Position numbers and translations under genes: made by a program | The notes under the pieces: model-generated | The model's input: only the letters and a program-made list of their open reading frames with translations | What the model was told of the DNA's origin: nothing | Database searches by the model: none | Part shown: in pieces, positions 2,955 through 63,270 of the stretch | Numbering within the stretch: the first letter of the stretch is position 1 | How the letters are laid out: every line of letters starts with the position of its first letter | Assembly (NCBI GenBank): GCA_965226795.1 | Contig: CBDDDZ010000003.1 | Span: 64,001-128,000, forward strand | From: Candidatus Latescibacterota bacterium | GTDB lineage: Bacteria; Latescibacterota; UBA2968; GCA-2709665 | Direction: 5' to 3' | DNA length: 64,000 nucleotides

Positions 2955-3803
2955 ATGTCAAAGGGAGAAAAACGGATCGGTTTCGTAGATTACAATCTCG
3001 AAAACTTTCATTCCAATGTCTACCTGAAGCTTCTCCGCAATGAACTGAAACATCGGGGGTTCGTCGTTGCCGGTTGTACGGGCATGCGGCCTCGGGCCGG
3101 CAGGACGTGGGCCCGGTCGAACGACGTGCCCTATTTCCCCGACGCGGCCGGGTTGAACGAGGCGGTGGACTACTTCATGGTGTTGGCGCCCTCAACCCCG
3201 GAGACGCACCTTGAACTGTGCGGGCAGGTATTTCCCTTCGGTAAGCCCACGTACGTGGACAAGACCTTCGCGCCGGACCTGCGAACGGCCGGGCGAATTT
3301 TCGCGCTGGCGGACCGGCATCGGGTGCCCATGCAGACGACATCCGCGTTGCGTTATACCGAAGTGCAGGACTACGTGGAAGAGGTCGGGCGTAGGCAGGT
3401 CCGGCACATGGTAACCTGGGGCGGCGGGCGGTCCTTTGCCGAATACGCGATCCATCCCCTGGAATTGGCCATCAGCTGTATGGGGCCAGGCGTGCGCCGG
3501 ATGATGCGCCGGGGCGCCGGAAAACAATCGCAACTGCTGCTGGATTTTTCGGGAGGACGTACCGCGGTCGTGAACGTGTACACCGGGTCGAGTACACCCT
3601 ATGCGGCTTCGGTGACCACCACCGGGGCGACACGGCACTTCCAGGTCGACTCGGGTCGCATTTTTCTGAATACCGCGGATGCCGTGCTGGATCTGTTCGA
3701 ATCCGGGGAACCCGGTATCGACAGGAAAGAGAGCCTGATCATTCGCAGGATTCTGGACGCGGCCGGACAGAATCGGGCACTGTCGGGCTTTGTGAGACTG
3801 TAA
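2955..3803 (+). CDS. Gfo/Idh/MocA-like oxidoreductase (divergent)
   Basis: PTYVDKTFA, TSALRY and YAIHPLE motifs; 15 bp downstream of the previous gene. Confidence 0.75.
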   Translation: MSKGEKRIGFVDYNLENFHSNVYLKLLRNELKHRGFVVAGCTGMRPRAGRTWARSNDVPYFPDAAGLNEAVDYFMVLAPSTPETHLELCGQVFPFGKPTYVDKTFAPDLRTAGRIFALADRHRVPMQTTSALRYTEVQDYVEEVGRRQVRHMVTWGGGRSFAEYAIHPLELAISCMGPGVRRMMRRGAGKQSQLLLDFSGGRTAVVNVYTGSSTPYAASVTTTGATRHFQVDSGRIFLNTADAVLDLFESGEPGIDRKESLIIRRILDAAGQNRALSGFVRL

Positions 3804-3865
3804 CGAAGGAACCGCTTCCCGCCACCCATGATGCAGAATTTATGCCACCCCCAAACGTCCCCTAT

Positions 3866-4101
3866 TCCCTTGCCCTTTTTCTTGCATCGCCCAAGAAAAA
3901 GGGGGAAAAAGAAGGGCGCCTGCCTGCCGAGCACGGCTCGGCGCAGGCAGGCCGCTCGGCGCGGGGCCGGTTTTTCCGTGAATAACCTCAGAGACAAAAT
4001 TGGAGTTTGGGTGCCCTATGAGTCCCTCAGCTTGACCGATACAACGGTGCTGGACGGATTAACACGGAAAAACCCCCACACCACCACAGGACGGGCGAGG
4101 G
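3866..4101 (-). repeat. Dispersed structured intergenic element, copy 1 (candidate ncRNA or non-autonomous mobile element)
   Basis: Collinear homology with 34315-34613 (same orientation) and 60563-60825 (inverted); compensatory changes in several stems. Confidence 0.85.
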
Positions 4102-4173
4102 TTAAACGGGATGGATCGTCGCATGGATCTACGGTCGTACCGCCAATCGCCGTCTGCTTCCCGCCTGGTTCAT

Positions 4174-4213
4174 CTCCCCCTTTCCTTTAGGAGAGGGGGC
4201 CGGGGGGAGAGGT
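4174..4213. repeat. REP-like imperfect palindrome
   Basis: ctccccctttcctttaggagagggggccggggggagagg folds as a hairpin; single copy in this window. Confidence 0.45.
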
Positions 4214-4250
4214 CACGGCGCTGACGTCAATTGATTGGGTTTTTGCTTCA

Positions 4251-4285
4251 AGCTGATAGCTGTAAGCTGATGGCTAATAGCTGCT
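4251..4285. repeat. Degenerate heptamer tandem repeat (5 units)
   Basis: agctgat agctgta agctgat ggctaat agctgct. Confidence 0.7.
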
Positions 4286-4342
4286 GTTGCTGATTCTCGA
4301 CGGCTAAAGTCTGGCGATCAATTGCCGGGACAAACAACGGCG

Positions 4343-7057
4343 TCAGTCCTCCTCTGCAAACTCGGCGGCCTTGAGGAGGGTGACGGCGTCGCATTCGGTG
4401 GCCGGGTAATCGCGTACGGTAATAGATCTCTCCGTAGCGGCTTCGATTTCGTACCCGGTATCGCCACACAGCAGATAGGTCCCGGGAAGGGCATCGGGGT
4501 CGGGCGCGGCGTTTCGGAGATGGTAGGTGCGATCGGAGACGCCGGTGACCTCGAGGGAGATCTCCGCACTGTCGACTGTCAGCGCGTGCCCGTTGCAGCG
4601 GATTTCGGTACCGCACAGCAGATAGGCGCGGAGCAGGCGTCCACCGTCATCGACGGAAGCAAAGGCGAACCGGCCTGTGATGGACAATGGTCCGACGTCG
4701 TGGGCGCCGCCCTCCGGCGCAGAGAGGATGTAGTCCGTACATCCCTGGCGACGGACGGCGACCGCCATCGCGCCGGTGTCCGGATCGTCCACGAGCAGGC
4801 GGGAAGATTGGACGGACGAACTTTCGACGTACGGTGAAATCACCGCTGCATATTGGCTGGTCAGATGCGTATCGTCGCCGCGTTCCGCCAGGATCTGCTG
4901 CACGGGCGGGGCGTTGAGTTCCTCGCCCAGGTCCGAGCGCCAGCCCGGAGCGTCCGCGAGAAGCAGACGATGGATAGGGTTGAGCAGCGTGAGGTCCAGT
5001 CGCACGTCCTGGTTTTCCCATGTAGCGGTGAATGGACCTTGAGGCCGGTCGGCGCGGATGTTGGCCAGCCATTCGATGTGTTCGTCGACGGGTTTCGGGT
5101 CGGCGCCGACAATGCCGGTGAGGCGGCCGTTGCAGTGAAAGCCATATTGGTGACGTAGGCCGCCGTTCACCTGGAAAAGGTCGACGGCGTAGGTCTGATC
5201 GCCGGGGATCCGGACCAGGACGCAGGTGCGCCGGTACAGATGGCACTGCTGGTATGGCGCCGCGGTTGCCTGTACGACCTCGACGCCCGCGCCCGCGCCG
5301 AAGAGTTCCAGCGCGGCCGGCCTACCGCTGCCGATCTGGTTCTGTCCGTCTACAGTGACGATGTTGTGGGAGAGCGTGCTTTTGGTCCAGGCGTTTCTGG
5401 GGTCGTCCCAGATATAACCCCTGTCCGCCGCCATCTCCCGCCCATGGGCGATGTAGATGATCCCCAGGGTGTCGTTGTGGCGATGGCCGCCATACGCATA
5501 TCCGTTCAGGTAGAACGCGGTATGTCCCCTCGGATTTCCGCCCCGGAGAACGCCGACGTGCCAGCCGGGAAACCATTCGGTATGTTGAGGGAGGTCGGTT
5601 TCGTCGCCCACTTTCAGGTCGGGGTCCCGGTGCCAGAGGGCGTATTCCTCCCCTTTCAGTGACAGTGGCGCCCCCTGGGATTTCTCCAGCAGGGCGGCGT
5701 AGCGGCTGCCGTAGTGGGCGGCCAGGACCTCGGCGTAGATGGGGTCGATGGTCCGACCCTCCCCGGAGTCTCCGATGACAGGATCCTGCAGGTTCGGATC
5801 CAGCATGCGGACCATGCTCTCCAGGGCCAGACGATAGCGGTCGAAGTGTTTAAAGGGGTCCAGGTTCGTTATAGCGGCGCCCGTGTCCGGTTCGTACCCG
5901 TCGGGGTCGGAGTACCCGTTGAGCAATTCGGGAATTTCTCGCAGAAGGTTGAGATGCATGGAGGAGTAGCTGGGAGACTCTGTGCAAAAACCGTCAGAGT
6001 GGAACGCGTCCTCCAGAAGCGCTTCAAACCCCTGGATCGCCCGGCGTACGCCTTGCGGTCTATCGAACAGAATACCCACCGCGGCGCTGAGCGCCCGGCC
6101 GGGACCGCATTTGTTGTTGATGTCGTTCCAGTTTTCGGTGTCCGCGCAACCGGCAAGGATGAGGTCGTCAACGATGCGCCGGTCCATTCCGGGCGTAATG
6201 ACATGGGAGCCGTCGGGATGCCGGGCGGATCGGATCAGGTCATATGCCAGCGCGACCCGGAGAATGTATCCGCCATCGGAGCCGCTGCAGCCAAAGCGTC
6301 CGGCGCCCCAGAAGCCGTTGTTGAGTACCGCGTGGTCATCCACCCTGTGCCGGCCCTCAAAGGCGGAAACAATGGTTTCCACGGGAAATCGGCCGGCGGG
6401 GGGGTATCTGCCCATGGATGCCGCGGCTTCCGCCGGTGGACAATCCGCAACGGTGCCGTCGTAGGAGTGGAATAACCAGTTGGGATACCGCCGCGCCATA
6501 CAGTCCATAATCCACGCGCTCCACTGCGCGTACTGCACGTCGTCGGTGAGTGCGTACAACTTGGCGAGAGGAAGCATCTGTTCGTAGCACCAGCGGCTTT
6601 TCTTTGAGCGGATGACGCCGGTCCAGCTTGTGTGGACGGGCCATCGGACCCATTTGAACGCGTGTTCGCCCGATCTGTCTTCAGGGTGTGCGCGTTCCGC
6701 ATCGGTGAGATAGAAGGTGAACGTCTGGTTCATTCCGGGTGCGGTGACGCTGCCGGTCTCGGGATAATCGGCGTTGGGGTACTCGGTTTTGCAGTACCTG
6801 CAGATGAGTCGGTCCGGATCGGTCGGGTCCCAGTCGTAGATACCGCATTCGCCCATGGAAGAGAGACGGTCTACACAGGCTGGGCAGTTCTGGCCGTACT
6901 CGGGCCAGGGGGTGAGTTCCGGCATCATCGCCTCGACAAAATCCCTGTCCCGGCCAGTGAGGTAGTCGACCTCTTTTTTCCAGTCTTCGACGATGGCCTG
7001 CGCCCAGGTATGGCGGCGCAGGTTCTCCCGCGCGATTTCAACGTTGAGAAGAGGCAT
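4343..7057 (-). CDS. Heparinase II/III-like polysaccharide lyase
   Basis: DGFCTESPSYS, GGHRHNDTLG, ADRGY and STLSHNIVTVDG motifs; N-terminal CxxC pairs (CPAC, CRYC); RBS AGGAG precedes the ATG at 7057. Confidence 0.8.
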   Translation of the reverse strand: MPLLNVEIARENLRRHTWAQAIVEDWKKEVDYLTGRDRDFVEAMMPELTPWPEYGQNCPACVDRLSSMGECGIYDWDPTDPDRLICRYCKTEYPNADYPETGSVTAPGMNQTFTFYLTDAERAHPEDRSGEHAFKWVRWPVHTSWTGVIRSKKSRWCYEQMLPLAKLYALTDDVQYAQWSAWIMDCMARRYPNWLFHSYDGTVADCPPAEAAASMGRYPPAGRFPVETIVSAFEGRHRVDDHAVLNNGFWGAGRFGCSGSDGGYILRVALAYDLIRSARHPDGSHVITPGMDRRIVDDLILAGCADTENWNDINNKCGPGRALSAAVGILFDRPQGVRRAIQGFEALLEDAFHSDGFCTESPSYSSMHLNLLREIPELLNGYSDPDGYEPDTGAAITNLDPFKHFDRYRLALESMVRMLDPNLQDPVIGDSGEGRTIDPIYAEVLAAHYGSRYAALLEKSQGAPLSLKGEEYALWHRDPDLKVGDETDLPQHTEWFPGWHVGVLRGGNPRGHTAFYLNGYAYGGHRHNDTLGIIYIAHGREMAADRGYIWDDPRNAWTKSTLSHNIVTVDGQNQIGSGRPAALELFGAGAGVEVVQATAAPYQQCHLYRRTCVLVRIPGDQTYAVDLFQVNGGLRHQYGFHCNGRLTGIVGADPKPVDEHIEWLANIRADRPQGPFTATWENQDVRLDLTLLNPIHRLLLADAPGWRSDLGEELNAPPVQQILAERGDDTHLTSQYAAVISPYVESSSVQSSRLLVDDPDTGAMAVAVRRQGCTDYILSAPEGGAHDVGPLSITGRFAFASVDDGGRLLRAYLLCGTEIRCNGHALTVDSAEISLEVTGVSDRTYHLRNAAPDPDALPGTYLLCGDTGYEIEAATERSITVRDYPATECDAVTLLKAAEFAEED

Positions 7058-34210: not shown

Positions 34211-34314
34211 ATGTCGGTGAGAAGGTAGACATAAGACGTCAGAGGACCACACCCGACCCCAACGGCCCTTCGCGCTTTGCCTCGTCTCACGTCTCCCGTC
34301 TTCCCTCTAACGGC

Positions 34315-34613
34315 TTTTTTGGAACTGCGTTCCGGGCAGACACATGCTCCTGCTTTTCCTTCAACCTTCATTTTTCCTTTGTCCTTTTTCTTGCTTCGCC
34401 CAAGAAAAAGGACGAAAAAGAAGGGCGCCTGCCTGCCGAGCACGGCTCGGCGCAGGCAGGCCGCTCAGACGCCGCGGGGCTGCTTTTCCGCGAACTACCC
34501 TTACGATGGAAATCCGGGGTTGTGCCCTGCAACGTTCTTAGAACTCCCCGAGTGACGGTGGTGAACGGAATAGCGCGGAAAAGCCCCCTCTTCACCGCCG
34601 GGCGGGCGTGAGG
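34315..34613 (-). repeat. Dispersed structured intergenic element, copy 2
   Basis: Homologous to 3866-4101; 34414-34466 is identical to 3905-3957. Also contains the ggaactgcgttcc hairpin shared with copies 3 and 4. Confidence 0.85.
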
Positions 34614-34664
34614 TAGACCGCGAAGGACCGTTGCACCGATTTGCGGTGTTGCCGCGCGGAAGGT

Positions 34665-48029: not shown

Positions 48030-49160
48030 ATGCGATTCGTTCGATTCACGATCTTCCTGGGCGCGTGCCTGTGGGGTTTTTCAATTTCTGCGGCCGACCT
48101 GGTCGTGGAGATGCACCAGGAGGAAGAGGAGGCGGAATTGCGGTACCGCGTCGGCGTGATCGACGCGGAAACGCGAACGGTCGATTGGGGTGAGGTGGGG
48201 GCGCACGACGATGGGCAGGCCCCCTCGGTCGCCGTGGACGGAGACCTCGTGGTCGAGGTACACCAGTCCCATTTTGGTACGAATCTGTGGTATAAGGTTG
48301 GCGAGGTCGACGCGAGGACAAAGGCGATCCTGTGGGGCGAGGGGACGAAGTTCGACGGCGGCCGGTTTCCCATGGTCGCGCTGGAGGGCCGGGTGGTGGT
48401 GGAGGTGCATCAGTCCCACCTTGGCACGAATCTGTGGTACCACGTGGGCGTTGTGGACACGCAGGAGAAATCGATTGTCTGGGGCGACGCGCAGAAATAC
48501 GACGAGGGGCGGTTCCCGTCGGTGGCGCTTTCGAACGGGATTGTGGTGGAAACACATCAATCCGAAGAGGGTGAACGTCTACGGTATAACGTAGGCGTGG
48601 TGGATACGGCCGCGATGGAGATCGCGTGGGGAGACGCGCGGGAATACGACCGCGGCCAGACGCCCTCCGTGGATATGGACGATGGCGTGGTCATAGAGAT
48701 ACATGAGTCGATCAACGGAGGGCGTCTGTGGTATCACGTGGGCGCTCTGGATGTGGAGGGCAGGATCGTCGAGTGGGGTGAGGCGAAGGAATCCGACCGG
48801 GGCACGTTGCCCAACGTGGCGCTCGATAACGGGATCGCAACGGAGGTGCATCAGGGACACAACAGTTCCGACCTGTGGTATCGCGTCGGTCCGGTGAATC
48901 CGGAGACGAAGACGGTGTCCTGGGGGACAGGCTGGAACTACGGTGAAGGGATACTGCCCGTTGTGAGCGTCAGCGTCATGGAAAGATCCGCTGATTTCGA
49001 CGGCAACGGAACGGTGGATTTCAGTGATTTTTTGATTTTCGCAAGGGCCTTCGGTTCCGAAGTGGGGGACGTGGATTACGAGAGTCGATTCGACCTGGAT
49101 GGAAACGGCCGCGTCGGCTTTCCCGATTTTGTCCGTTTCGCACGGAAATTTGGCACCTAG
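48030..49160 (+). CDS. Secreted six-repeat beta-propeller protein with a C-terminal dockerin-like double EF-hand
   Basis: Signal-peptide-like N-terminus; six 49-aa repeats; DFDGNGTVDFSDF...DLDGNGRVGFPDF tail. Confidence 0.82.
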   Translation: MRFVRFTIFLGACLWGFSISAADLVVEMHQEEEEAELRYRVGVIDAETRTVDWGEVGAHDDGQAPSVAVDGDLVVEVHQSHFGTNLWYKVGEVDARTKAILWGEGTKFDGGRFPMVALEGRVVVEVHQSHLGTNLWYHVGVVDTQEKSIVWGDAQKYDEGRFPSVALSNGIVVETHQSEEGERLRYNVGVVDTAAMEIAWGDAREYDRGQTPSVDMDDGVVIEIHESINGGRLWYHVGALDVEGRIVEWGEAKESDRGTLPNVALDNGIATEVHQGHNSSDLWYRVGPVNPETKTVSWGTGWNYGEGILPVVSVSVMERSADFDGNGTVDFSDFLIFARAFGSEVGDVDYESRFDLDGNGRVGFPDFVRFARKFGT

Positions 49161-51047
49161 TCCTAAAATAAGCGAGTTTCGTTTGCGGCACATCGATCTG
49201 TGTTTGTGGTGAGGCGTTGGTGTCGATTTATATGGAATTGGCGTTTTGGATGATCTTTGGGGCGGTGTTTGTCGTGGTCGCTATCGTGAATTGAGTATCC
49301 GAAGTGTCGGTCAGGCGCGTGGTGGACACACCGGTGCGTTGAGGGGTGTGGGGATGGCGCGGCGTGTGTGTGTCATCGGTCGTGCTGCATGGGTGTTATC
49401 CAAATCCGGTGCGTTCAATGATACGCCAGGTGCTGAAGAGGCGATCGAGGGTGGGTTGATAGCCGATGAGGCGCAACGTGGTGGTGTGCGCGCGTTGGAT
49501 GACGTGGCAGGGAATCAAGATGATGCTGTGGATGAAGCGCCGGAATTCCATGCGGACGTACTGCTGTCGGTCCAGGTGTCGGTGCATCATCATGGCAAAC
49601 CAGGATTTGAGGTTCCAGGCCAGGGCGGCGATGACCATGTAGGCCCAGTTGCTGACCAGGTCATACAGGGGCACGCGCAAGGCGTTGACGCCGTTTTTGA
49701 GTTGCTCGATGACGTTCTCCTGATCGCAGCGTTGGTTGGCACAGGCGACGATCTCGGCGGGGCTTACGTCCGTGCGTGTCGTGATATAGAAGAAATAACG
49801 GCATTCGTCGAACAGGACAAGGTCGCCCTTCATTTTACTGATGTTCTTGCGCAGGACCACGACGCGATACACACGTTTACAGCGCGTGGGTTGGTAGTTG
49901 AACTCGGCCACGTGTTCGTGGTTCAGCACCAGGTTGGCGTAGGCCCGTTTGCGGACGATGCGCTGTTTCTCGTGGGGCTGATTGCGCTTCCGCTTCTGGT
50001 CGGTCACGGTGTGATAACGGGGTTTGCGTTGCAGGGGCTGCCATTGTGCCTCGTCGAGGGCCTCAGCACGGGAACGCATCGTCGCGTTGGCGTCCATCCC
50101 GAAGATGAAGTCGACGCTTTTGGCCCAGCGATCAAAATGTCGGGTCAAGGAAAAGTCGGTGTCGCCACGTACACAGAGGCGCTTGGCGTGGGGCTGCACC
50201 AGCGCCAAGGCCGCGTCGATCCAGGGTGCCGCACCGGTGTGGCTGGGCACATTCCCCGGTCGGTTGACCAGGAAGAGCACTTCCTTCGTGTTGGCCAGTG
50301 AGATCACCAGCGGATGGTAGCCCCAGATGCCCTGGTAAGAGATGTCCATACCCCTCTTGCGCTTTCCATACGTCGGCACGTTTGTGCCGTCCACGTCGAT
50401 ATAGGTGATGTCACAAAGCAATTTGCGCCCACGCGATGCCCACAAGGAGGATCGCACCGCGTTGATGCACGCCATCAGTTCGACGATGTCCCGTTCCGAG
50501 AAGCGTCGGCAAAAGTCACCCGCCGTGGTCGGATCGGGAATCAACTGAGCACCCAGGGCATTCATGTAGGCCCCGTCATGTCGCAAACGCTCGATATCCT
50601 CCAGGCGCGTGCCGCCGCACAACACGTTGTAAGCGATGTTGAGCACGTGGTCCGACTCATGATAGGGCAGATGCACCTTCAACAGGGACAGCGACGCGTC
50701 GATGCGCTTGGGCAGTCCCAGCTTGGTGACCAGGCGATGCACGGCGCCGATGCCTCCGTAACTCATCGCGTCGGTGTAGGCGCCCACCTCGTAGTGCACT
50801 TTGCCAGGACTGAACATGGGCCGGGGCTGCGCCTGCCAATGCCCCGCTCGACCGTGGCGGGCGGCCACTTTGCGTTTGCGACGAGCACGGTTCCTGCGGC
50901 TGTCATCAACCGATATTCTTTTCACCGGAAAGGTCTCCTGCGTTGGAGTGATGATTTCTAGCGCAATCCATCTATCTCCAACAACGGTAGGCCTTTCCGG
51001 TCTCTTGGACCAGAAAAATCTCACCATCACGCTTGTTTAAGGACTAG
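49157..51047 (-). mobile_element. IS1380-family insertion sequence, copy A
   Basis: Ends CTAGTCCTAAAATAAGCG ... CGCTTGTTTAAGGACTAG; near-identical inverted copy at 54249-56140. Confidence 0.92.
49396..50925 (-). CDS. IS1380-family DDE transposase
   Basis: IDVDGT, GYHPL, RPGN, RGDTDF and RCDQENVIEQLK; probable GTG start after the RBS CAGGAG. Confidence 0.92.
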   Translation of the reverse strand: MKRISVDDSRRNRARRKRKVAARHGRAGHWQAQPRPMFSPGKVHYEVGAYTDAMSYGGIGAVHRLVTKLGLPKRIDASLSLLKVHLPYHESDHVLNIAYNVLCGGTRLEDIERLRHDGAYMNALGAQLIPDPTTAGDFCRRFSERDIVELMACINAVRSSLWASRGRKLLCDITYIDVDGTNVPTYGKRKRGMDISYQGIWGYHPLVISLANTKEVLFLVNRPGNVPSHTGAAPWIDAALALVQPHAKRLCVRGDTDFSLTRHFDRWAKSVDFIFGMDANATMRSRAEALDEAQWQPLQRKPRYHTVTDQKRKRNQPHEKQRIVRKRAYANLVLNHEHVAEFNYQPTRCKRVYRVVVLRKNISKMKGDLVLFDECRYFFYITTRTDVSPAEIVACANQRCDQENVIEQLKNGVNALRVPLYDLVSNWAYMVIAALAWNLKSWFAMMMHRHLDRQQYVRMEFRRFIHSIILIPCHVIQRAHTTTLRLIGYQPTLDRLFSTWRIIERTGFG

Positions 51048-54000
51048 AGGGACATAGCGGGCGCGTCACGTCCGTGGCATTTTCACCCGATGGAAAGACA
51101 CTCGCATCGGGTTCCGATGATGAAACGGTCAAGGTCTGGAATGTAGCGACACAGACAAATATCGCTACCTTTGAGGGACACCGTTCCTGGGTGAGTTCTG
51201 TTGCGTTTTCGCCCGACGGCACTACCATCGCTTCTGCGTCTAGGGATAATGTTTCAAGTTCGTGGGATAACGCCGTAAGACTCTGGGACGTGGCTACCGG
51301 AAAAAATGTAGCCACATATAGACATGTAGATAATATCTCTACGACATATAACTCGCCATGGATTGTTTATCAGCCTTCTGGCCAAGCGCAATTCGTCTAT
51401 TCTGTAGCGTTTTCGCCTGACGGCACTACCCTTGCCTCCGGGGCAGGGCCTTGGGTCGGGAATGGAACAGCCGTTTTGTGGGATGTTTCAGAATGGACCA
51501 GCCCGCGGCCTCACACGATTCAAACAATCTCGGGCAATGGCCAGCAATCATCGCCCGGTTCAGCATTGGCAAATCCGTTCATCGTTGAAGTGAGAGATCA
51601 GAATGGCAATCCCCTACAGGGTGTACGGGTCACGTTTACTGTCACTGCCGGGGATGGGAAACTAAGTGGCAGGTTTGGTGTTGAAAACGCTGTTACCGAT
51701 GCCAGCGGTAGGGCTCAACGGACCTTAACACTTGGCCCAAATCCTGGAGCAAATGCTGTTAAGGCATCTGTTGTGGGGATTGTCGAAGATTATGAGACTA
51801 CGTTTAATGCCACGGGTATTGGAACCCCCACCACGCCTACAATAGATGGTGGTGATTATAGCACGTGGCACTTGCCAAACGGCACCATCGCTCGACTGGG
51901 AAAGGGAAGCATTGGTGGTACCGTTGCGTTTTCTCCAGATGGACGAACGCTCGCTGTCTCCGGAGGCATTGGAGTCTGGCTTTATGAAGTTGCGACACAG
52001 AATGAACTCTCGCTGTTCACGGGGCATCAAGGAACTGTGAGATCCGTAGCTTTCTCTCCTGACGGTACCATGTTGGTTTCCGGCTCAAGTTCATCGTACA
52101 GTGGTACACTGAAGTTGTGGAACGTCTCGACGGGACGCGATATTGCAACCTTTGGAGGTAACCGCACTTGGCGGCAAGCAATCGGGTCAGTGGCGTTTTC
52201 ACCAGATGGAAACTCAATTGCTGCCGGTTCTTACGGCGAGGTTAACCTTTGGGACGTTGCCTCGAAAACAAAAATCGCTACCCTTGCGGGGCATACACGA
52301 TGGGTTCATTCCGTAGCCTACTCCCCAGACGGCAAGATGCTCGCCGCAGGGCTCAATGATGACAAAGTCGAGCTTTGGGATATTTCCGCAAGGACGAAGA
52401 CGACATTGACACATGAAGGTTTGGTAGGGTCCGTCGCATTTTCTCCCGATGGCAGGACCCTTGCTTCCGCTGGTACTGGTATCGTTAAATTGTGGGATGT
52501 AGCAACACGGACCGTTGTCAACACACTTAAAAATACATTTGGCCCCGTGGCATATTCTCCAGATGGCACTATGCTTTTTGCAGGGGATAAGCTGTGGGAT
52601 GCTAATGCAGCCACAAGTCTAGCTACGTTTGGCGGACGAGCGAGTTTCGTCGCATTTTCACCCGACGGGAGAACACTTGCTACAGGAACGAATGTGTATG
52701 TTAGCTTGTGGGATATTCAGACACATAATAACGTCACAATAAAGCATAGTACCGGAGTTAGATCTATCGCATTCTCCCCTGACGGAACAACCCTTGCATC
52801 AGATGGATCGGGATCCGTCCAGTTGTGGGATGTAGCGAAGCAAACAGAAATCGCAACTCTTGATGCTCGTGGACCAGTTGCGTTTTTTCCGAACGGTACC
52901 ACGCTCGTGACAGGGAACAAACTGTGGAATGTCCCAACCCGGACGAATTTCGCGACACTTTCTGGTTTATTTCATTCCGTTGCGATTTCGCCTGATGGAA
53001 CGATCCTTGCATCAGGAGGTGTGGGAAGCACTGTCAAGCTCTGGGACGTTGCGACGAGACAAGAGATCGGCACGCTCGAAGGACATACAGGCGACTTCAA
53101 CAGCGGTGCCGTTCAGGCCGTGGCGTTCTCGCCAGACGGAATCACACTTGCTTCAGGGTCGAGGGACAATACGATCAGGCTGTGGAATGTGTCGACAAGA
53201 CGAAATATCGCGACACTTCAAGGGCATAGTAAGTTCGTTGAATCGGTGGCATTTTCGCCAGACGGCGAAACGCTCGCGTCAGGGTCTCGGGATAGAACTG
53301 TCAAGCTGTGGAATGTGACGTCAGAACAAGGTATCGCCACGCTGAGGCATCGAACCGAGGTTCTAACCGTTGCGTTTGGGCCTGATGGTAATTCACTTGT
53401 TTCAGGATCAGCGGATGGTAGCGTTCTACTATGGGACCCTGTATCAAAAGAGAATACCACTTCTCTTAGCGGACATACTGGGTGGGTAAGGTCAGTTGCG
53501 TATTCATCTAATGGTACAACATTAGCCTCTGGAGCAACGGATGGCACGGTTCTCCTTTGGGATATATCCTCGCTGGGGTCAGGCACGTCACCAGAGGCCT
53601 CCTTTTCACTATCCCTGGACGGAAATCTCGCATCCGGTAATCAGGGCGTCACAACGCTCGACGTTAGTTCCGGGTCGGTTGTCCCGATACAGCTCTTTGG
53701 TAACGATATCCGGGGTGTAAACGGTGTTTCCGCCCGGTTTGAATTCGATGTGGCTCAGGTCGATTATGACGGGTTCGATCCGGGAAGCCTGTTGCCGAAT
53801 GCGCAGGTGCTCGCGGTGCCTGCGACCAATCCAACCGCCATCGATGTCAGCGTCGTGTCTTTTGGCGGGCAGGCTGCGGTCGATAGCGGAATCGTGGGCA
53901 CCATACGTTTCCGCACGACGGACGGGTTTTTGGGTTCGACGATTCGGATGGTGACCGCTGAGATCGGACGCGGAGACGAGCGCGAGAGCATAACGCCATC

Positions 54001-54208
54001 TGATATCGCCGTCACCCTGAGGCTGGCTGAACCGTCGCCGGACTTCAACGGAGACGGCAAGGTCGATTTTGGCGACTTTGTGGCATTTGGAATGCACTTC
54101 GGCGCAAGCCTGGGCGATTCGAGGTACGACCCGAAGTACGACCTTGATCAAGACGGCATGATCGGATTCGGGGATTTCCTGATATTTGGCCAGGAGTTTG
54201 GCACGTAA
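51044..54208 (+). pseudogene. 5'-truncated WD40-repeat protein with Big_1/Ig-like, cohesin-like and dockerin-like domains
   Basis: Frame starts mid-repeat at the IS end (CTA GAG GGA CAT = LEGH), with an in-frame TAA at 51038 and no signal peptide. Many VAFSPDG/LWDV repeats; the rest of the ORF is intact. Confidence 0.8.
53597..54208 (+). repeat. Shared 612-bp C-terminal coding module (cohesin-like plus dockerin-like), copy 1
   Basis: Same length as and collinear with 59525-60136; many long identical stretches. Confidence 0.9.
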
Positions 54209-54248: not shown

Positions 54249-56140
54249 CTAGTCCTTAAATAAGCGTGACCGGTGAGATTTTTCTGGTCCAAGAGACCGG
54301 AAAGGCCTACCGTTGTTGGAGATAGATGGATTGCGCTAGAAATCATCACTCCAACGCAGGAGACCTTTCCGGTGAAAAGAATATCGGTTGATGACAGCCG
54401 CAGGAACCGTGCTCGTCGCAAACGCAAAGTGGCCGCCCGCCACGGTCGAGCGGGGCATTGGCAGGCGCAGCCCCGGCCCATGTTCAGTCCTGGCAAAGTG
54501 CACTACGAGGTGGGCGCCTACACCGACGCGATGAGTTACGGAGGCATCGGCGCCGTGCATCGCCTGGTCACCAAGCTGGGACTGCCCAAGCGCATCGACG
54601 CGTCGCTGTCCCTGTTGAAGGTGCATCTGCCCTATCATGAGTCGGACCACGTGCTCAACATCGCTTACAACGTGTTGTGCGGCGGCACGCGCCTGGAGGA
54701 TATCGAGCGTTTGCGACATGACGGGGCCTACATGAATGCCCTGGGTGCTCAGTTGATTCCCGATCCGACCACGGCGGGTGACTTTTGCCGACGCTTCTCG
54801 GAACGGGACATCGTCGAACTGATGGCGTGCATCAACGCGGTGCGATCCTCCTTGTGGGCATCGCGTGGCCGCAAATTGCTTTGTGACATCACCTATATCG
54901 ACGTGGACGGCACAAACGTGCCGACGTATGGAAAGCGCAAGAGGGGTATGGACATCTCTTACCAGGGCATCTGGGGCTACCATCCGCTGGTGATCTCACT
55001 GGCCAACACGAAGGAAGTGCTCTTCCTGGTCAACCGACCGGGGAATGTGCCCAGCCACACCGGTGCGGCACCCTGGATCGACGCGGCCTTGGCGCTGGTG
55101 CAGCCCCACGCCAAGCGCCTCTGTGTACGTGGCGACACCGACTTTTCCTTGACCCGACATTTTGATCGCTGGGCCAAAAGCGTCGACTTCATCTTCGGGA
55201 TGGACGCCAACGCGACGATGCGTTCCCGTGCTGAGGCCCTCGACGAGGCACAATGGCAGCCCCTGCAACGCAAACCCCGTTATCACACCGTGACCGACCA
55301 GAAGCGGAAGCGCAATCAGCCCCACGAGAAACAGCGCATCGTCCGCAAACGGGCCTACGCCAACCTGGTGCTGAACCACGAACACGTGGCCGAGTTCAAC
55401 TACCAACCCACGCGCTGTAAACGTGTGTATCGCGTCGTGGTCCTGCGCAAGAACATCAGTAAAATGAAGGGCGACCTTGTCCTGTTCGACGAATGCCGTT
55501 ATTTCTTCTATATCACGACACGCACGGACGTAAGCCCCGCCGAGATCGTCGCCTGTGCCAACCAACGCTGCGATCAGGAGAACGTCATCGAGCAACTCAA
55601 AAACGGCGTCAACGCCTTGCGCGTGCCCCTGTATGACCTGGTCAGCAACTGGGCCTACATGGTCATCGCCGCCCTGGCCTGGAACCTCAAATCCTGGTTT
55701 GCCATGATGATGCACCGACACCTGGACCGACAGCAGTACGTCCGCATGGAATTCCGGCGCTTCATCCACAGCATCATCTTGATTCCCTGCCACGTCATCC
55801 AACGCGCGCACACCACCACGTTGCGCCTCATCGGCTATCAACCCACCCTCGATCGCCTCTTCAGCACCTGGCGTATCATTGAACGCACCGGATTTGGATA
55901 ACACCCATGCAGCACGACCGATGACACACACACGCCGCGCCATCCCCACACCCCTCAACGCACCGGTGTGTCCACCACGCGCCTGACCGACACTTCGGAT
56001 ACTCAATTCACGATAGCGACCACGACAAACACCGCCCCAAAGATCATCCAAAACGCCAATTCCATATAAATCGACACCAACGCCTCACCACAAACACAGA
56101 TCGATGTGCCGCAAACGAAACTCGCTTATTTTAGGACTAG
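54249..56140 (+). mobile_element. IS1380-family insertion sequence, copy B
   Basis: Ends CTAGTCCTTAAATAAGCG ... CGCTTATTTTAGGACTAG. Confidence 0.92.
54372..55901 (+). CDS. IS1380-family DDE transposase
   Basis: Same protein sequence as copy A in the ORF track; one synonymous Gly change (GGG/GGC) noticed. Confidence 0.92.
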   Translation: MKRISVDDSRRNRARRKRKVAARHGRAGHWQAQPRPMFSPGKVHYEVGAYTDAMSYGGIGAVHRLVTKLGLPKRIDASLSLLKVHLPYHESDHVLNIAYNVLCGGTRLEDIERLRHDGAYMNALGAQLIPDPTTAGDFCRRFSERDIVELMACINAVRSSLWASRGRKLLCDITYIDVDGTNVPTYGKRKRGMDISYQGIWGYHPLVISLANTKEVLFLVNRPGNVPSHTGAAPWIDAALALVQPHAKRLCVRGDTDFSLTRHFDRWAKSVDFIFGMDANATMRSRAEALDEAQWQPLQRKPRYHTVTDQKRKRNQPHEKQRIVRKRAYANLVLNHEHVAEFNYQPTRCKRVYRVVVLRKNISKMKGDLVLFDECRYFFYITTRTDVSPAEIVACANQRCDQENVIEQLKNGVNALRVPLYDLVSNWAYMVIAALAWNLKSWFAMMMHRHLDRQQYVRMEFRRFIHSIILIPCHVIQRAHTTTLRLIGYQPTLDRLFSTWRIIERTGFG

Positions 56141-60136: not shown

Positions 60137-60562
60137 CGTCGAATTCCTGCGGAAACTGGCTGTCAACATTTCAAAAGCAGGTATGTGGAGGCAGCCGCCT
60201 TGATTCGTGGAAGACACTGAGGTCTGCGAGCGGAACCACACGCTCTTCTCTGGATGTTGTGAGAAGCAAGAACAGCAGCGGCATCCCATTTTTGGAAACG
60301 AGGGCGATCCAAGGATCGCCCTCGTTCACTTTTAGGGTTACCAGAACGCGGTCTCTCACACGGCAACTTACAACCGCGCAGTGGTGGAGTGGGGGCTGTT
60401 GTTCGCGGCATGAGACGCGCCGCTCACCATCAAGTTCGAATGCCAACATCAGGCGTCCCCTGTTGTCCCAATAAACCACCGGAACAACCGGTCACCGCTA
60501 CGCGGGTGGAACTGGATTCTCCGCGCCTTAACGTACAGCAACATCAAATTACTGGGATTCTT

Positions 60563-60825
60563 CCCTCGCGCGACCGGTGGCGGAGATGGGGGTTTTTCCG
60601 CGTTAATCCGTCCAGCACCACAGTATCGGCTTATCTGACGAACCCGTAGGGCACCCAACCTCCGTTACTGCCCCTGAGGCGATTCGTGGAAAAACCGGCC
60701 CCGCGCCGAGCGGCGCGGTTCTTTTTGGTCCTTTTTCTTACGCGAATAAGAAAAAGGACGAAGAAGAAAAGAGGTTGAAGTAAAGGGTAAGGCCTGTGCC
60801 CGCCCGGAACGCAGTTCCAAAAAAA
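60563..60825 (+). repeat. Dispersed structured intergenic element, copy 3 (lacks the 33-bp insert)
   Basis: Reverse complement aligns with copies 1 and 2, e.g. ggtgctggacggattaac and tgggtgcccta shared with copy 1. Confidence 0.85.
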
Positions 60826-60964
60826 CAGGAAGAGGAAAGACGAGAGACGCTAGAAGGCCCCCCAACCTCCGCCGGACATCGATACGGCCTGACGAGATCA
60901 ATTCGCGAACGTCTGGTTCTTGCAGGGGCGCTTCGCGCTGCCGCCTTGATTCCTGACAACAGAA

Positions 60965-62935: not shown

Positions 62936-63039
62936 AGGATTGTCGTTCAATAGGTCGGTGGCGGAACGGCACACAGGCGACGTGCGCGGATACACACCTC
63001 ATGATAAAGAAAAGCCGTCACGCCGGCGAGGAGGAAATG

Positions 63040-63104
63040 GGACGAAGAAAGATCAAAATGTGAAGGGAGAGGTGCTGCCTGTGTCCGCCCGGAACGCAGT
63101 TCCA
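63040..63104 (+). repeat. Dispersed structured element, copy 4 (3' fragment)
   Basis: gcctgtgtccgcccggaacgcagttcca (63077-63104) matches 60792-60819 at 27/28, with degenerate similarity upstream. Confidence 0.75.
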
Positions 63105-63270
63105 TGCGGAAATTGTCCGCTGCCACTGCCCGTATCCGGCTTCTTCCCTGTAATCCTTGCCTCGATCCATGCATTTTCTTAAAATAACAACCCCGCGCGT
63201 TTCGAATAGGAAGGTTGAAGGCGCACTATTTCCGTTCGATCTATGCCTTTTCTGATGACAGGAGAATGCA

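Follow-up and report, generated by a model that had tools for sequence, protein, structure and literature searches.

We describe a non-coding, modular, multi-copy repeat whose hairpins are kept complementary, and we propose that it is probably, though by no means certainly, a non-autonomous mobile element that is spread and rearranged as DNA; the enzyme that would move it was not found. The element came to notice in the window, a 64,000-nt stretch of a Latescibacterota genome (G000:C3:64001-128000) whose assembly comprises 5.41 Mb in five contigs with 58% G+C and is 96%-complete. A first-pass annotation had suggested a structured ncRNA or an RNA/ssDNA-level mobile element. The maintained folding and a turnover like that of mobile elements are both borne out, but an ncRNA gene is not.

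All four copies reported by that annotation are present in the window where it had placed them, with a mutual identity of 72–90% in a repeat comparison: 3854–3957 matches 34363–34466 (90%, direct), 3951–4078 matches 60587–60714 (82%, inverted), 34285–34376 matches 60763–60854 (76%, inverted), and 60776–60819 matches 63061–63104 (82%, direct). The ends first given for copy 1 (3866–4101) were too short, as profile nhmmer places the element at approximately 3806–4145 (C3:67806-68145). The supposed fragment at 63040–63104 is homologous, but consists of a left flanking module only, without the core. Read in the orientation of copy 1, the order of parts is left module, hairpin 1, A-rich linker, GC hairpin (optional), small hairpin, core and tail. 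The features of the window are:

3806–3871, plus strand: left flanking module of copy 1, type A (profile nhmmer)
3872–3917, plus strand: "L" unit of copy 1, made of hairpin 1 and the A-rich linker
3918–3952, plus strand: optional GC-rich perfect hairpin of copy 1, 33–35 nt, nested
3952–3964, plus strand: small hairpin of copy 1 (CCGC...GCGG), 4 bp
3969–4074, plus strand: core or "R" unit of copy 1, made of the long-range stem and an 82-nt centre
4075–4145, plus strand: right tail of copy 1, one among several alternatives
4173–4336, plus strand: second, different repeat block with a G-rich hairpin and GCTGA-type 8-mer repeats
34309–34653, plus strand: copy 2, with left module type B, GC hairpin and a centre of another subfamily
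60551–60821, minus strand: copy 3, a two-subfamily chimera that lacks the GC hairpin
63025–63115, minus strand: fragment, left module type B alone (nhmmer, profile positions 18–99 only)

In copy 1, the left module begins 3 nt past the stop codon of the upstream gene (2955–3803). Hairpin 1 has a 13-bp A/T-rich stem (3872–3884 with 3892–3904), and the long-range stem that encloses the centre has 12 bp (3969–3980 with 4063–4074). The span from hairpin 1 to the end of the long stem is 34381–34585 in copy 2 and 60591–60759 in copy 3. Its parts form a mosaic and are found on their own as well: among the aligned copies there are at least four different left modules, the GC hairpin is present in 17 of 59 aligned copies and stands alone at five sites in G000, and profile nhmmer returned left-only, core-only and GC-hairpin-only matches in the same genome.

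The initial tally of three long copies plus one fragment is an undercount. Single-sequence nhmmer with the three window copies as queries recovered 86 loci in the G000 genome, and profile nhmmer (score ≥150) recovered 79 full copies of the family, F1. A diverged, paralogous family, F2, contributes 29 further full copies in G000; the layout and the motif islands are alike in the two families, whereas the hairpin sequences differ. Approximately 23 of the 29 F2 copies are inverted relative to an F1 copy located 13–331 nt away, and such inverted F1/F2 pairs could act as long MITE-like ends. A covariance model of the core (R1; 122 positions, 16 pairs) matched eight F2 copies at 37–44 bits, and the copy-1 core is matched by the covariance model at E 2.8e-27.

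By BLAST, the family was found in all 14 other genomes of the genus and in 4/4 genomes of two further genera, and in none of three genomes of two more genera or 19 genomes of the sister family. Core matches to R1 were found in 18/18 genomes of family f1 and in 20/30 genomes of the sister family f2, the two families sampled from the order, with none in 102 genomes from twelve other families of the phylum; strong matches occur in three sister-family genera, at 23–54 per genome in four genomes (150 candidates scored). Since these genomes are kin, the counts describe a clade, not independent events. Six full-length copies lie on three MAGs labelled Gemmatimonadota, which reflects either a labelling difference or transfer. 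Within G000, the copies are unevenly spread: they are dense where the GC skew is noisy, and rare around the skew maximum of contig C5 (approximately 0.65–2.8 Mb).

The stems and hairpins quoted for copies 1–3 in the first-pass annotation read as written, and across larger alignments pairing is indeed kept through changes on both sides of the helices. Alignment A1 holds 59 distinct copies from several genomes and 43 pairs. Standard pairs occupy 97.5% of its 1927 cells as compared with 92.5% in shuffles (0/500 reach this value), both sides have changed in 123 cells against 36 expected (0/500 shuffles), and 8/43 pairs have changed on both sides, a figure reached by 15/500 shuffles; slid controls were 48–61% paired. 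In alignment A4 (101 distinct core copies, drawn from two bacterial families and from F2), 97.0% of the cells are paired as compared with 85.0% in shuffles (0/500 reach this value), and 14/16 pairs have changed on both sides against 7.4 expected (0/500 shuffles), where the pairing figures are favoured because A4 was fitted to the model's structure.

Considered one by one, the helices behave as follows. In A1, helix 1 is 98.8% paired, and two of its pairs show three Watson–Crick types each; for hairpin 1, 1751/1781 cells in 137 copies are Watson–Crick. The small hairpin shows both-side changes in 3/4 pairs among 59 copies and in 4/4 among 101 copies, and the long stem differs between the two bacterial families by compensated transversions. 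This covariation establishes hairpin 1, the small hairpin and the long stem as real helices, while the GC hairpin never varies and is therefore uninformative in this respect; three of the four helices are thus supported by covariation. The two compensated long-stem pairs singled out at first are real as well, but compensated positions mark subfamilies within G000, and they consequently represent few events, not many independent ones. None of 200 shuffles folds as well as copy 1, whether the minus strand is folded as RNA (z −3.9) or the plus strand as DNA (z −5.2).

Covariation in the stems is equally good for the two strands. It had been proposed that the minus strand is the functional one, and the long stem alone does favour it (10 A.C and 2 G.T, with 3 mismatches of other kinds, among 43 oriented copies of G000), but when hairpin 1 is included (7 A.C versus 12 G.T in 137 copies) there is no overall bias. 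The mean folding energy is −42.2 kcal/mol for the plus strand and −41.8 kcal/mol for the minus strand, and the minus strand is the stabler one in 22/51 copies. In copy 3, CCGCG stands opposite CGTGG, giving one G.U on the plus strand. This pair was formerly taken as a strand signal and is best read as a recombination junction, since in the G013 orthologue the two halves, CCACG and CGTGG, match fully and enclose a different centre. Several mismatched long stems join half-stems typical of different subfamilies.

No ORF is conserved, in agreement with the earlier observation, the best frame being open in just 28/51 copies. Nor does the element belong to a named RNA family: Rfam at gathering score gave no match in the window and none in 39.5 kb holding F1 and F2 copies, and searches at E up to 10 gave chance-level micro-RNA matches only. 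The left modules and tails vary, so that there is no conserved place for a promoter or terminator. Contigs of four RNA-library runs contain the conserved arms joined to many different flanks, and one 2336-nt contig from run X7 spans 3954–5400, from the core into the neighbouring gene; the contigs attest that the element is in these libraries but say nothing of transcription, strand or ends, and they may stem from DNA carry-over. The variable flanking modules, the random orientation to genes and a centre without conserved pairing are at odds with a discrete structured ncRNA gene, and a strand-specific ncRNA reading is not supported.

The centre of the core is constrained in length and at three short islands. 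It measures 81–84 nt in 48/48 parsed copies, and its sequence is free outside islands that are invariant or nearly so in 101/101 copies: GAAT beside the 5' stem half, a CCTGC-like motif in mid-centre, and GGACGGAA ahead of the 3' stem half. RNAalifold, applied to the full set and to eight sequence clusters, found no conserved helix in the centre and returned the outer stem plus inconsistent short helices only, and a scan of all column pairs in the model-fitted 101-copy alignment gave no further convincing pair. Centre helices drawn by eye were discarded, being confined to single subfamilies. Many copies carry, as judged by eye, GTAG followed by a short hairpin within the centre.

Clustering of the 104 distinct cores gives groups of 21, 18, 10, 7, 6, 5 and fewer members, and these mix G000 copies with those of other genomes, at different loci and in different species. 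It follows that entire cores, together with their centres, were copied to new positions. We also evaluated a guide or antisense role for the centres by comparing them with the rest of the genome; the mean best match scored 28.8 bits versus 27.4 bits in a reversed-sequence control, and the maximum 34.2 bits versus 36.2 bits, so that no genome match rises above the control and the role was rejected.

The strongest evidence on the nature of the element comes from turnover at orthologous sites. Copies are gained, lost or replaced between relatives, which is the behaviour of a DNA element, and empty sites of the kind that the first-pass annotation proposed to look for do occur in relatives. The copy-1 site lies between convergent genes whose synteny extends to each of the 14 other species of the genus. 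These genes are 540 nt apart in G000 as compared with 33–45 nt in G008, G006, G005 and G002, and the gap is filled by other repeat modules in the remaining species of the genus. Contigs from the DNA runs X9, X11 and X14 (three studies) join 3802 to 4340 through the same 29-nt filler as in G008, with flanks that are approximately 98% identical; short contigs matching the unique copy-1 centre are also present in these three runs, and an X2 contig carries the filled form of the site. The change at copy 1 is hence the replacement of 29 nt by 537 nt containing F1 and the second repeat block, not a clean insertion. The second block (4173–4336) sits in the same intergenic gap, within the 537 nt that are absent from relatives; it matches many sites in G008 and G013, and the same module is found 3' of F2 copies. 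We note that copy 1 replaces a short hairpin between the convergent genes.

The remaining window sites differ between relatives as well. At the copy-2 site, G003 lacks an F1 copy, and the copy in G008 differs in its left module, is without the GC hairpin and has a centre of unrelated sequence. At the copy-3 site in G013, the hairpin-1 side is approximately 98% identical (by eye) and the centre and inner stem half have been swapped, the G013 centre belonging to another subfamily. The site of the fragment (63025–63115) measures 463 nt in G008 versus 53 nt in G000.

Two 20-kb syntenic regions were further compared between G000 and G008, G013 and G003. A second empty site is given by G000 C3:518004-518509, where approximately 500 nt are opposed to a gap of 36 nt in G013 and 71 nt in G003. 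At two sites, the relative has a core and tail that are approximately 99% identical (by eye) but neither left module nor hairpin 1. In one orthologous pair the GC hairpin is the difference, being present in G000 and absent in G013, with a junction ambiguity of 2–3 nt, and one site holds a copy in all four genomes with a conserved left unit and four unrelated centres. No target-site duplication was recognisable at four filled-versus-empty comparisons, where the junctions are blurred by divergence or replacement. The species-level comparisons gave no clean insertion junction, and the population-level joint is a replacement. Within F1, no terminal inverted repeats were found at the element ends.

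A search of the 96%-complete genome for a mobilising enzyme returned no match to the TnpB zinc-ribbon (PF07282) or to the IS110 transposase (PF01548), and three matches to Y1/HUH. Two of the latter are domains within DUF1156-methyltransferase proteins of 1193 and 1206 aa. The third is an intact 251-aa RAYT with an HUH-type motif (C2:153770-154522), flanked by inverted 28-nt REPs of a sequence other than F1 in the manner of a classic REPtron; the F1 copies closest to it on C2 are at 143.6 kb, approximately 10 kb upstream, and at 245.5 kb, 91 kb downstream. Homologues of this RAYT occur in 18/21 genomes of f1 and in 1/19 of f2. Stop codons interrupt the orthologue in G008, G001 and G010, where element copies are many, and there is no RAYT match in G014, though its element copies are many, or in G036, a sister-family genome with many cores. 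We considered this phyletic pattern as support for a role of the RAYT and discarded it, as the tracking is rough only, with kin genomes, broken orthologues, and RAYT-less sister-family genomes that hold many copies.

A co-occurring transposase, as raised in the first-pass annotation, did not emerge: none is recurrent among 309 flanking ORFs by paralogue clustering. The insertion sequence of the window is of DDE type and unrelated, with no element profile match there. As a candidate for an autonomous element between separated F1 and F2 copies, a sole 3.6-kb interval was found and rejected, its ORFs being without a Pfam match. On C5, copies are oriented 12 plus and 7 minus on one replichore and 8 plus and 0 minus on the other, and the lack of an orientation switch argues against lagging-strand insertion in the style of IS200/IS605.

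With regard to gene context (crude ORF calls), the 79 F1 copies lie between convergent genes in 22 cases, divergent genes in 16 and tandem genes in 41, as compared with 13.3, 13.3 and 52.4 expected (p 0.012). Of the copies between tandem genes, 22 share the strand of the genes and 19 do not. The commonest neighbours among the 309 flanking ORFs are Gfo/Idh/MocA oxidoreductases (15 paralogues), followed by relatives of the heparinase-like gene beside copy 1 (5). A cis-regulatory tie to these recurrent neighbours was rejected, given that the element lies upstream or downstream of them and in either orientation. The copies are concentrated in carbohydrate-catabolism islands full of paralogues, and they probably help to reshuffle these regions.

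In the mechanism that we favour, units would be copied and pasted into intergenic DNA, often beside or inside earlier units, after which the copies may swap parts by recombination or gene conversion through the conserved arms. A mobilising or binding protein would then recognise the hairpins together with the three invariant single-stranded islands, probably while the DNA is transiently single-stranded. The leading candidate for the mobiliser would be an HUH/Y1 (RAYT-like) enzyme that acts in trans, and none of the results ties it to the family. Because 29 nt were replaced by 537 nt with several repeat types, the copy-1 event fits recombination as well as transposition. The conserved unpaired islands in two families and the RNA-library contigs would also fit a host-selected or RNA-level role.

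Several alternatives to a non-autonomous DNA element deserve consideration. It is unlikely, but credible, that the element is a host-exapted cis element serving as a bidirectional terminator, an insulator, an mRNA-end stabiliser or a site for a nucleoid or regulatory protein, which would be compatible with a mobile origin. The modest enrichment between convergent genes (22 versus 13.3 expected of 79, p 0.012) points in this direction, but there is no corresponding depletion between divergent genes (16 versus 13.3 expected). Similarly, copy 1 stands in place of a short hairpin between convergent genes and the islands and hairpins are conserved across two families, yet sites are freely empty in close relatives and copies show no consistent position or orientation with respect to paralogous neighbour genes. 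The X7 RNA-library contig (3954–5400) runs the neighbouring gene into the element, but contigs cannot show transcription, strand or ends. We regard as improbable a second possibility, that of a REPIN-type element moved specifically by the genome's RAYT, a Y1 HUH transposase, on single-stranded DNA. The genome does encode an intact 251-aa RAYT with an HUH-type motif, the core has a REPIN layout, many centres contain GTAG and a short hairpin (by eye), and classic GTAG-type REP hairpins adjoin copies; however, the RAYT itself is flanked by another repeat, the arms of the element are not palindromic REPs, and there is no replichore bias. The distribution of homologues (18/21 genomes of f1, 1/19 of f2) agrees with this reading, but the orthologue is broken by stop codons in G008, G001 and G010, no match was obtained in G014, and there are sister-family genomes with 23–54 cores, of which G036, the one included in the RAYT search, gave no match.

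That the copies encode small structured RNAs, or form a (retro)mobile element at the RNA level, acting from one strand, appears more doubtful still. The helices with compensatory changes and the significant folding are consistent with RNA, as are the RNA-library contigs that hold the arms, but there is no conserved flank for a promoter or terminator, with left modules and tails varying, and the centre lacks covariation and matches no Rfam family. The excess of A.C over G.T in the long stem (10 versus 2) would suit the minus strand, but this bias vanishes once hairpin 1 is added, and most of the long-stem A.C mismatches join half-stems of two subfamily types, as expected for chimeras. Also in favour of this reading, a weak helix between two conserved islands would pair on the minus strand only, with C-G in 14 copies and U.G in 7. 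Bolder, and distinctly speculative, is the reading in which the core would be the substrate of an unrecognised hairpin-guided DNA/RNA mobility and recombination system with a dedicated protein that is neither HUH, TnpB nor IS110. The centre would be an exchanged cassette, the two helices would position the three islands, and the system would have been maintained in one Latescibacterota order since the split of its two families; this reading draws on islands that are invariant across two families, which ordinary selfish-repeat models do not readily explain. Finally, we would hardly expect a guide-type scaffold (a TnpB omega-RNA or IS110 bridge RNA) or an attC-like site with the centre as its specificity part. 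A conserved scaffold surrounds two variable segments and centres are swapped at orthologous copies, as such a system might require, but the genome has no match to the TnpB zinc-ribbon or the IS110 transposase, the centres match nothing above the reversed-sequence control, the stem halves, as judged by reading, misfit the attC R-box consensus, and the copies lie kilobases apart in both orientations.

With a non-autonomous DNA repeat as the preferred reading, the present work places on record a large repeat superfamily that extends across a lineage of an uncultured phylum. Our search, in which subscription journals and supplements were outside the scope, found no literature that joins Latescibacterota with intergenic, REP or MITE repeats, and in a paper on sponge Latescibacterota (PMC12993501) the word "repeat" refers to protein repeats and CRISPR only. 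The element offers a practical strain-typing marker and is known to break assemblies: contigs from RNA as well as from DNA end within its arms. Its conserved islands and fixed spacing, found in two families with no known partner enzyme, make it a reasonable test case for REPIN-like persistence without a visible RAYT link. The present evidence opens no new class of system, and describes a new family within a known kind of repeat.

The arms of REPINs are REPs, which are short imperfect palindromes often tagged by GTAG or CGTC, and the RAYT is usually single-copy and flanked by the same repeats. The REPINs of Pseudomonas fluorescens SBW25 are described as having conserved inverted arms and a less conserved spacer, where length and pairing matter and compensatory changes are frequent (PMC3116915). 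The element studied here resembles them in being extragenic and present in many copies (79), in its paired inverted arms (the 12-bp stem), length-kept spacer and compensatory changes, and in forming higher-order clusters; both persist within a lineage. It differs in that its arms are 12 nt long, not self-complementary and not REPs, its spacer of approximately 82 nt contains three invariant islands, the RAYT of the genome is flanked by another repeat and not by F1, and there are extra separable units, namely the left hairpin unit and the nested GC hairpin. REPINs nevertheless appear to be the closest functional match.

BIMEs of E. coli and BOX elements of Streptococcus pneumoniae are intergenic mosaics that form hairpins, are assembled from few modules and encode no protein; BIMEs are bound by the host proteins IHF, gyrase and Pol I. 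Varying combinations of modules are likewise seen here (left modules, optional GC hairpin, tails and lone units), but there is no sequence relation to either, and the modules are longer, with a long-range stem and a variable centre of fixed length. A brief description of BIMEs is given in the abstract of PMC2817692.

We also compared the element with MITEs and with recombination sites. The MITEs Correia/NEMIS, ERIC and RUP are non-autonomous intergenic repeats of 100–300 nt that form long hairpins and are polymorphic between strains. Our element is likewise non-autonomous, intergenic, able to fold into a long hairpin and polymorphic between strains, whereas no terminal inverted repeats, target-site duplication or related insertion sequence were found; a DDE-type MITE was rejected since no related autonomous insertion sequence sharing its ends was found. 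Integron attC sites have R''/R' boxes and stand in one-orientation arrays beside an integrase. The likeness to them consists in a structure more conserved than the sequence and in paired ends around a variable centre. The stems found here, however, misfit the R-box consensus on reading and are perfect over 12 bp without extrahelical bases, and there are no one-orientation arrays next to an integrase. An integron attC site was accordingly rejected on the consensus misfit and on the scatter of copies in both orientations. An IS200/IS605 relic or a TnpB omega-RNA was rejected as there is no TnpB and the plus orientation prevails on both C5 replichores, and an IS110 bridge RNA as the IS110-family recombinase (PF01548) is absent from the genome matches.

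Since features of REPINs, DDE-type MITEs, IS200/IS605 elements, bridge and omega RNAs and attC sites fail in turn, we file the element as a new family of hairpin-based repeats. It is best read, by analogy with the systems above, as what appears to be a new lineage-specific family of non-autonomous, hairpin-based DNA repeats that would work in the manner of REPINs, BIMEs and MITEs.

A second, diverged paralogous family of repeats (F2) shares the architecture of the modular hairpin repeat (F1) in the Latescibacterota genome, with 29 full copies across the assembly and none in the window (examples are contig C3:523098-523381 and contig C5:224153-224436). An F2 copy is usually inverted relative to an F1 copy 13-331 nt away, and after it come runs of GCTGA-type 8-mers, which in many cases adjoin the start of the next gene. 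Another multi-copy repeat block, consisting of a G-rich hairpin and GCTGA repeats, occupies window positions 4173-4336 and has many copies in two of the compared genomes, G008 and G013. In the F2 alignment, a CGCCG pentamer lies between columns 246 and 252 (1-based), whose bases match as Watson-Crick complements in 29/29 copies; all four pair types are used, and the pair extends an odd palindrome of 7 bp, too short to form a stable hairpin.

The 33-nt GC hairpin, an optional part of F1, also stands alone in the genome, and looks like a mini-palindrome that inserts separately. Solitary copies are found at:

C4:123077-123110, solitary 33-nt GC hairpin
C4:93390-93423, solitary 33-nt GC hairpin
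C2:375781-375818, solitary 33-nt GC hairpin
C5:1594558-1594595, solitary 33-nt GC hairpin
C5:3051343-3051375, solitary 33-nt GC hairpin

In the hairpin 1 region of both families (e.g. window 3872-3917), the loop of the hairpin is, as judged by eye, complementary to a short segment on the core-facing side of the A-rich linker. Loop and segment also appear by eye to co-vary between variants, with four different pairings over three F1 variants and F2. The order of the segments would fit either a pseudoknot or two alternative hairpins.

Full-length F1 copies also occur at six loci (L019, L021, L032, L052, L067 and L070) on contigs of three MAGs labelled Gemmatimonadota, not Latescibacterota, which could reflect a labelling difference or transfer among co-resident bacteria. 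Within the window, a 53-nt gap at 63030-63084 holds a left-module fragment only, whereas its counterpart in G008 measures 463 nt (G008:C1:3062013-3062477); the latter may contain a full copy, or the former may be a deletion.

A REPtron of classic type is located at C2:152696-155917 (L135), where inverted 28-nt REP copies flank an intact RAYT (Y1 HUH transposase) of 251 aa, and several more lie within and near the gene; this REP belongs to a different repeat family than F1. Two paralogous proteins of 1193 and 1206 aa, encoded at C2:162000-174000 (locus L139: 1396-4977 and 7130-10750), contain DUF1156 together with a D12-class adenine methyltransferase region, and a Y1_Tnp (IS200-like) domain is embedded in each; genes resembling these are found close to the RAYT in G008, G010 and G016.

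The window also carries a DDE insertion sequence in two copies, 1869 nt long and 100% identical:

49157-51025, DDE_Tnp_1_4 insertion sequence, inverted relative to the second copy
51074-54208, WD40-repeat gene, 1044 aa, between the two copies
54272-56140, DDE_Tnp_1_4 insertion sequence, second copy

This arrangement, with the pair enclosing the WD40-repeat gene, resembles a composite transposon.
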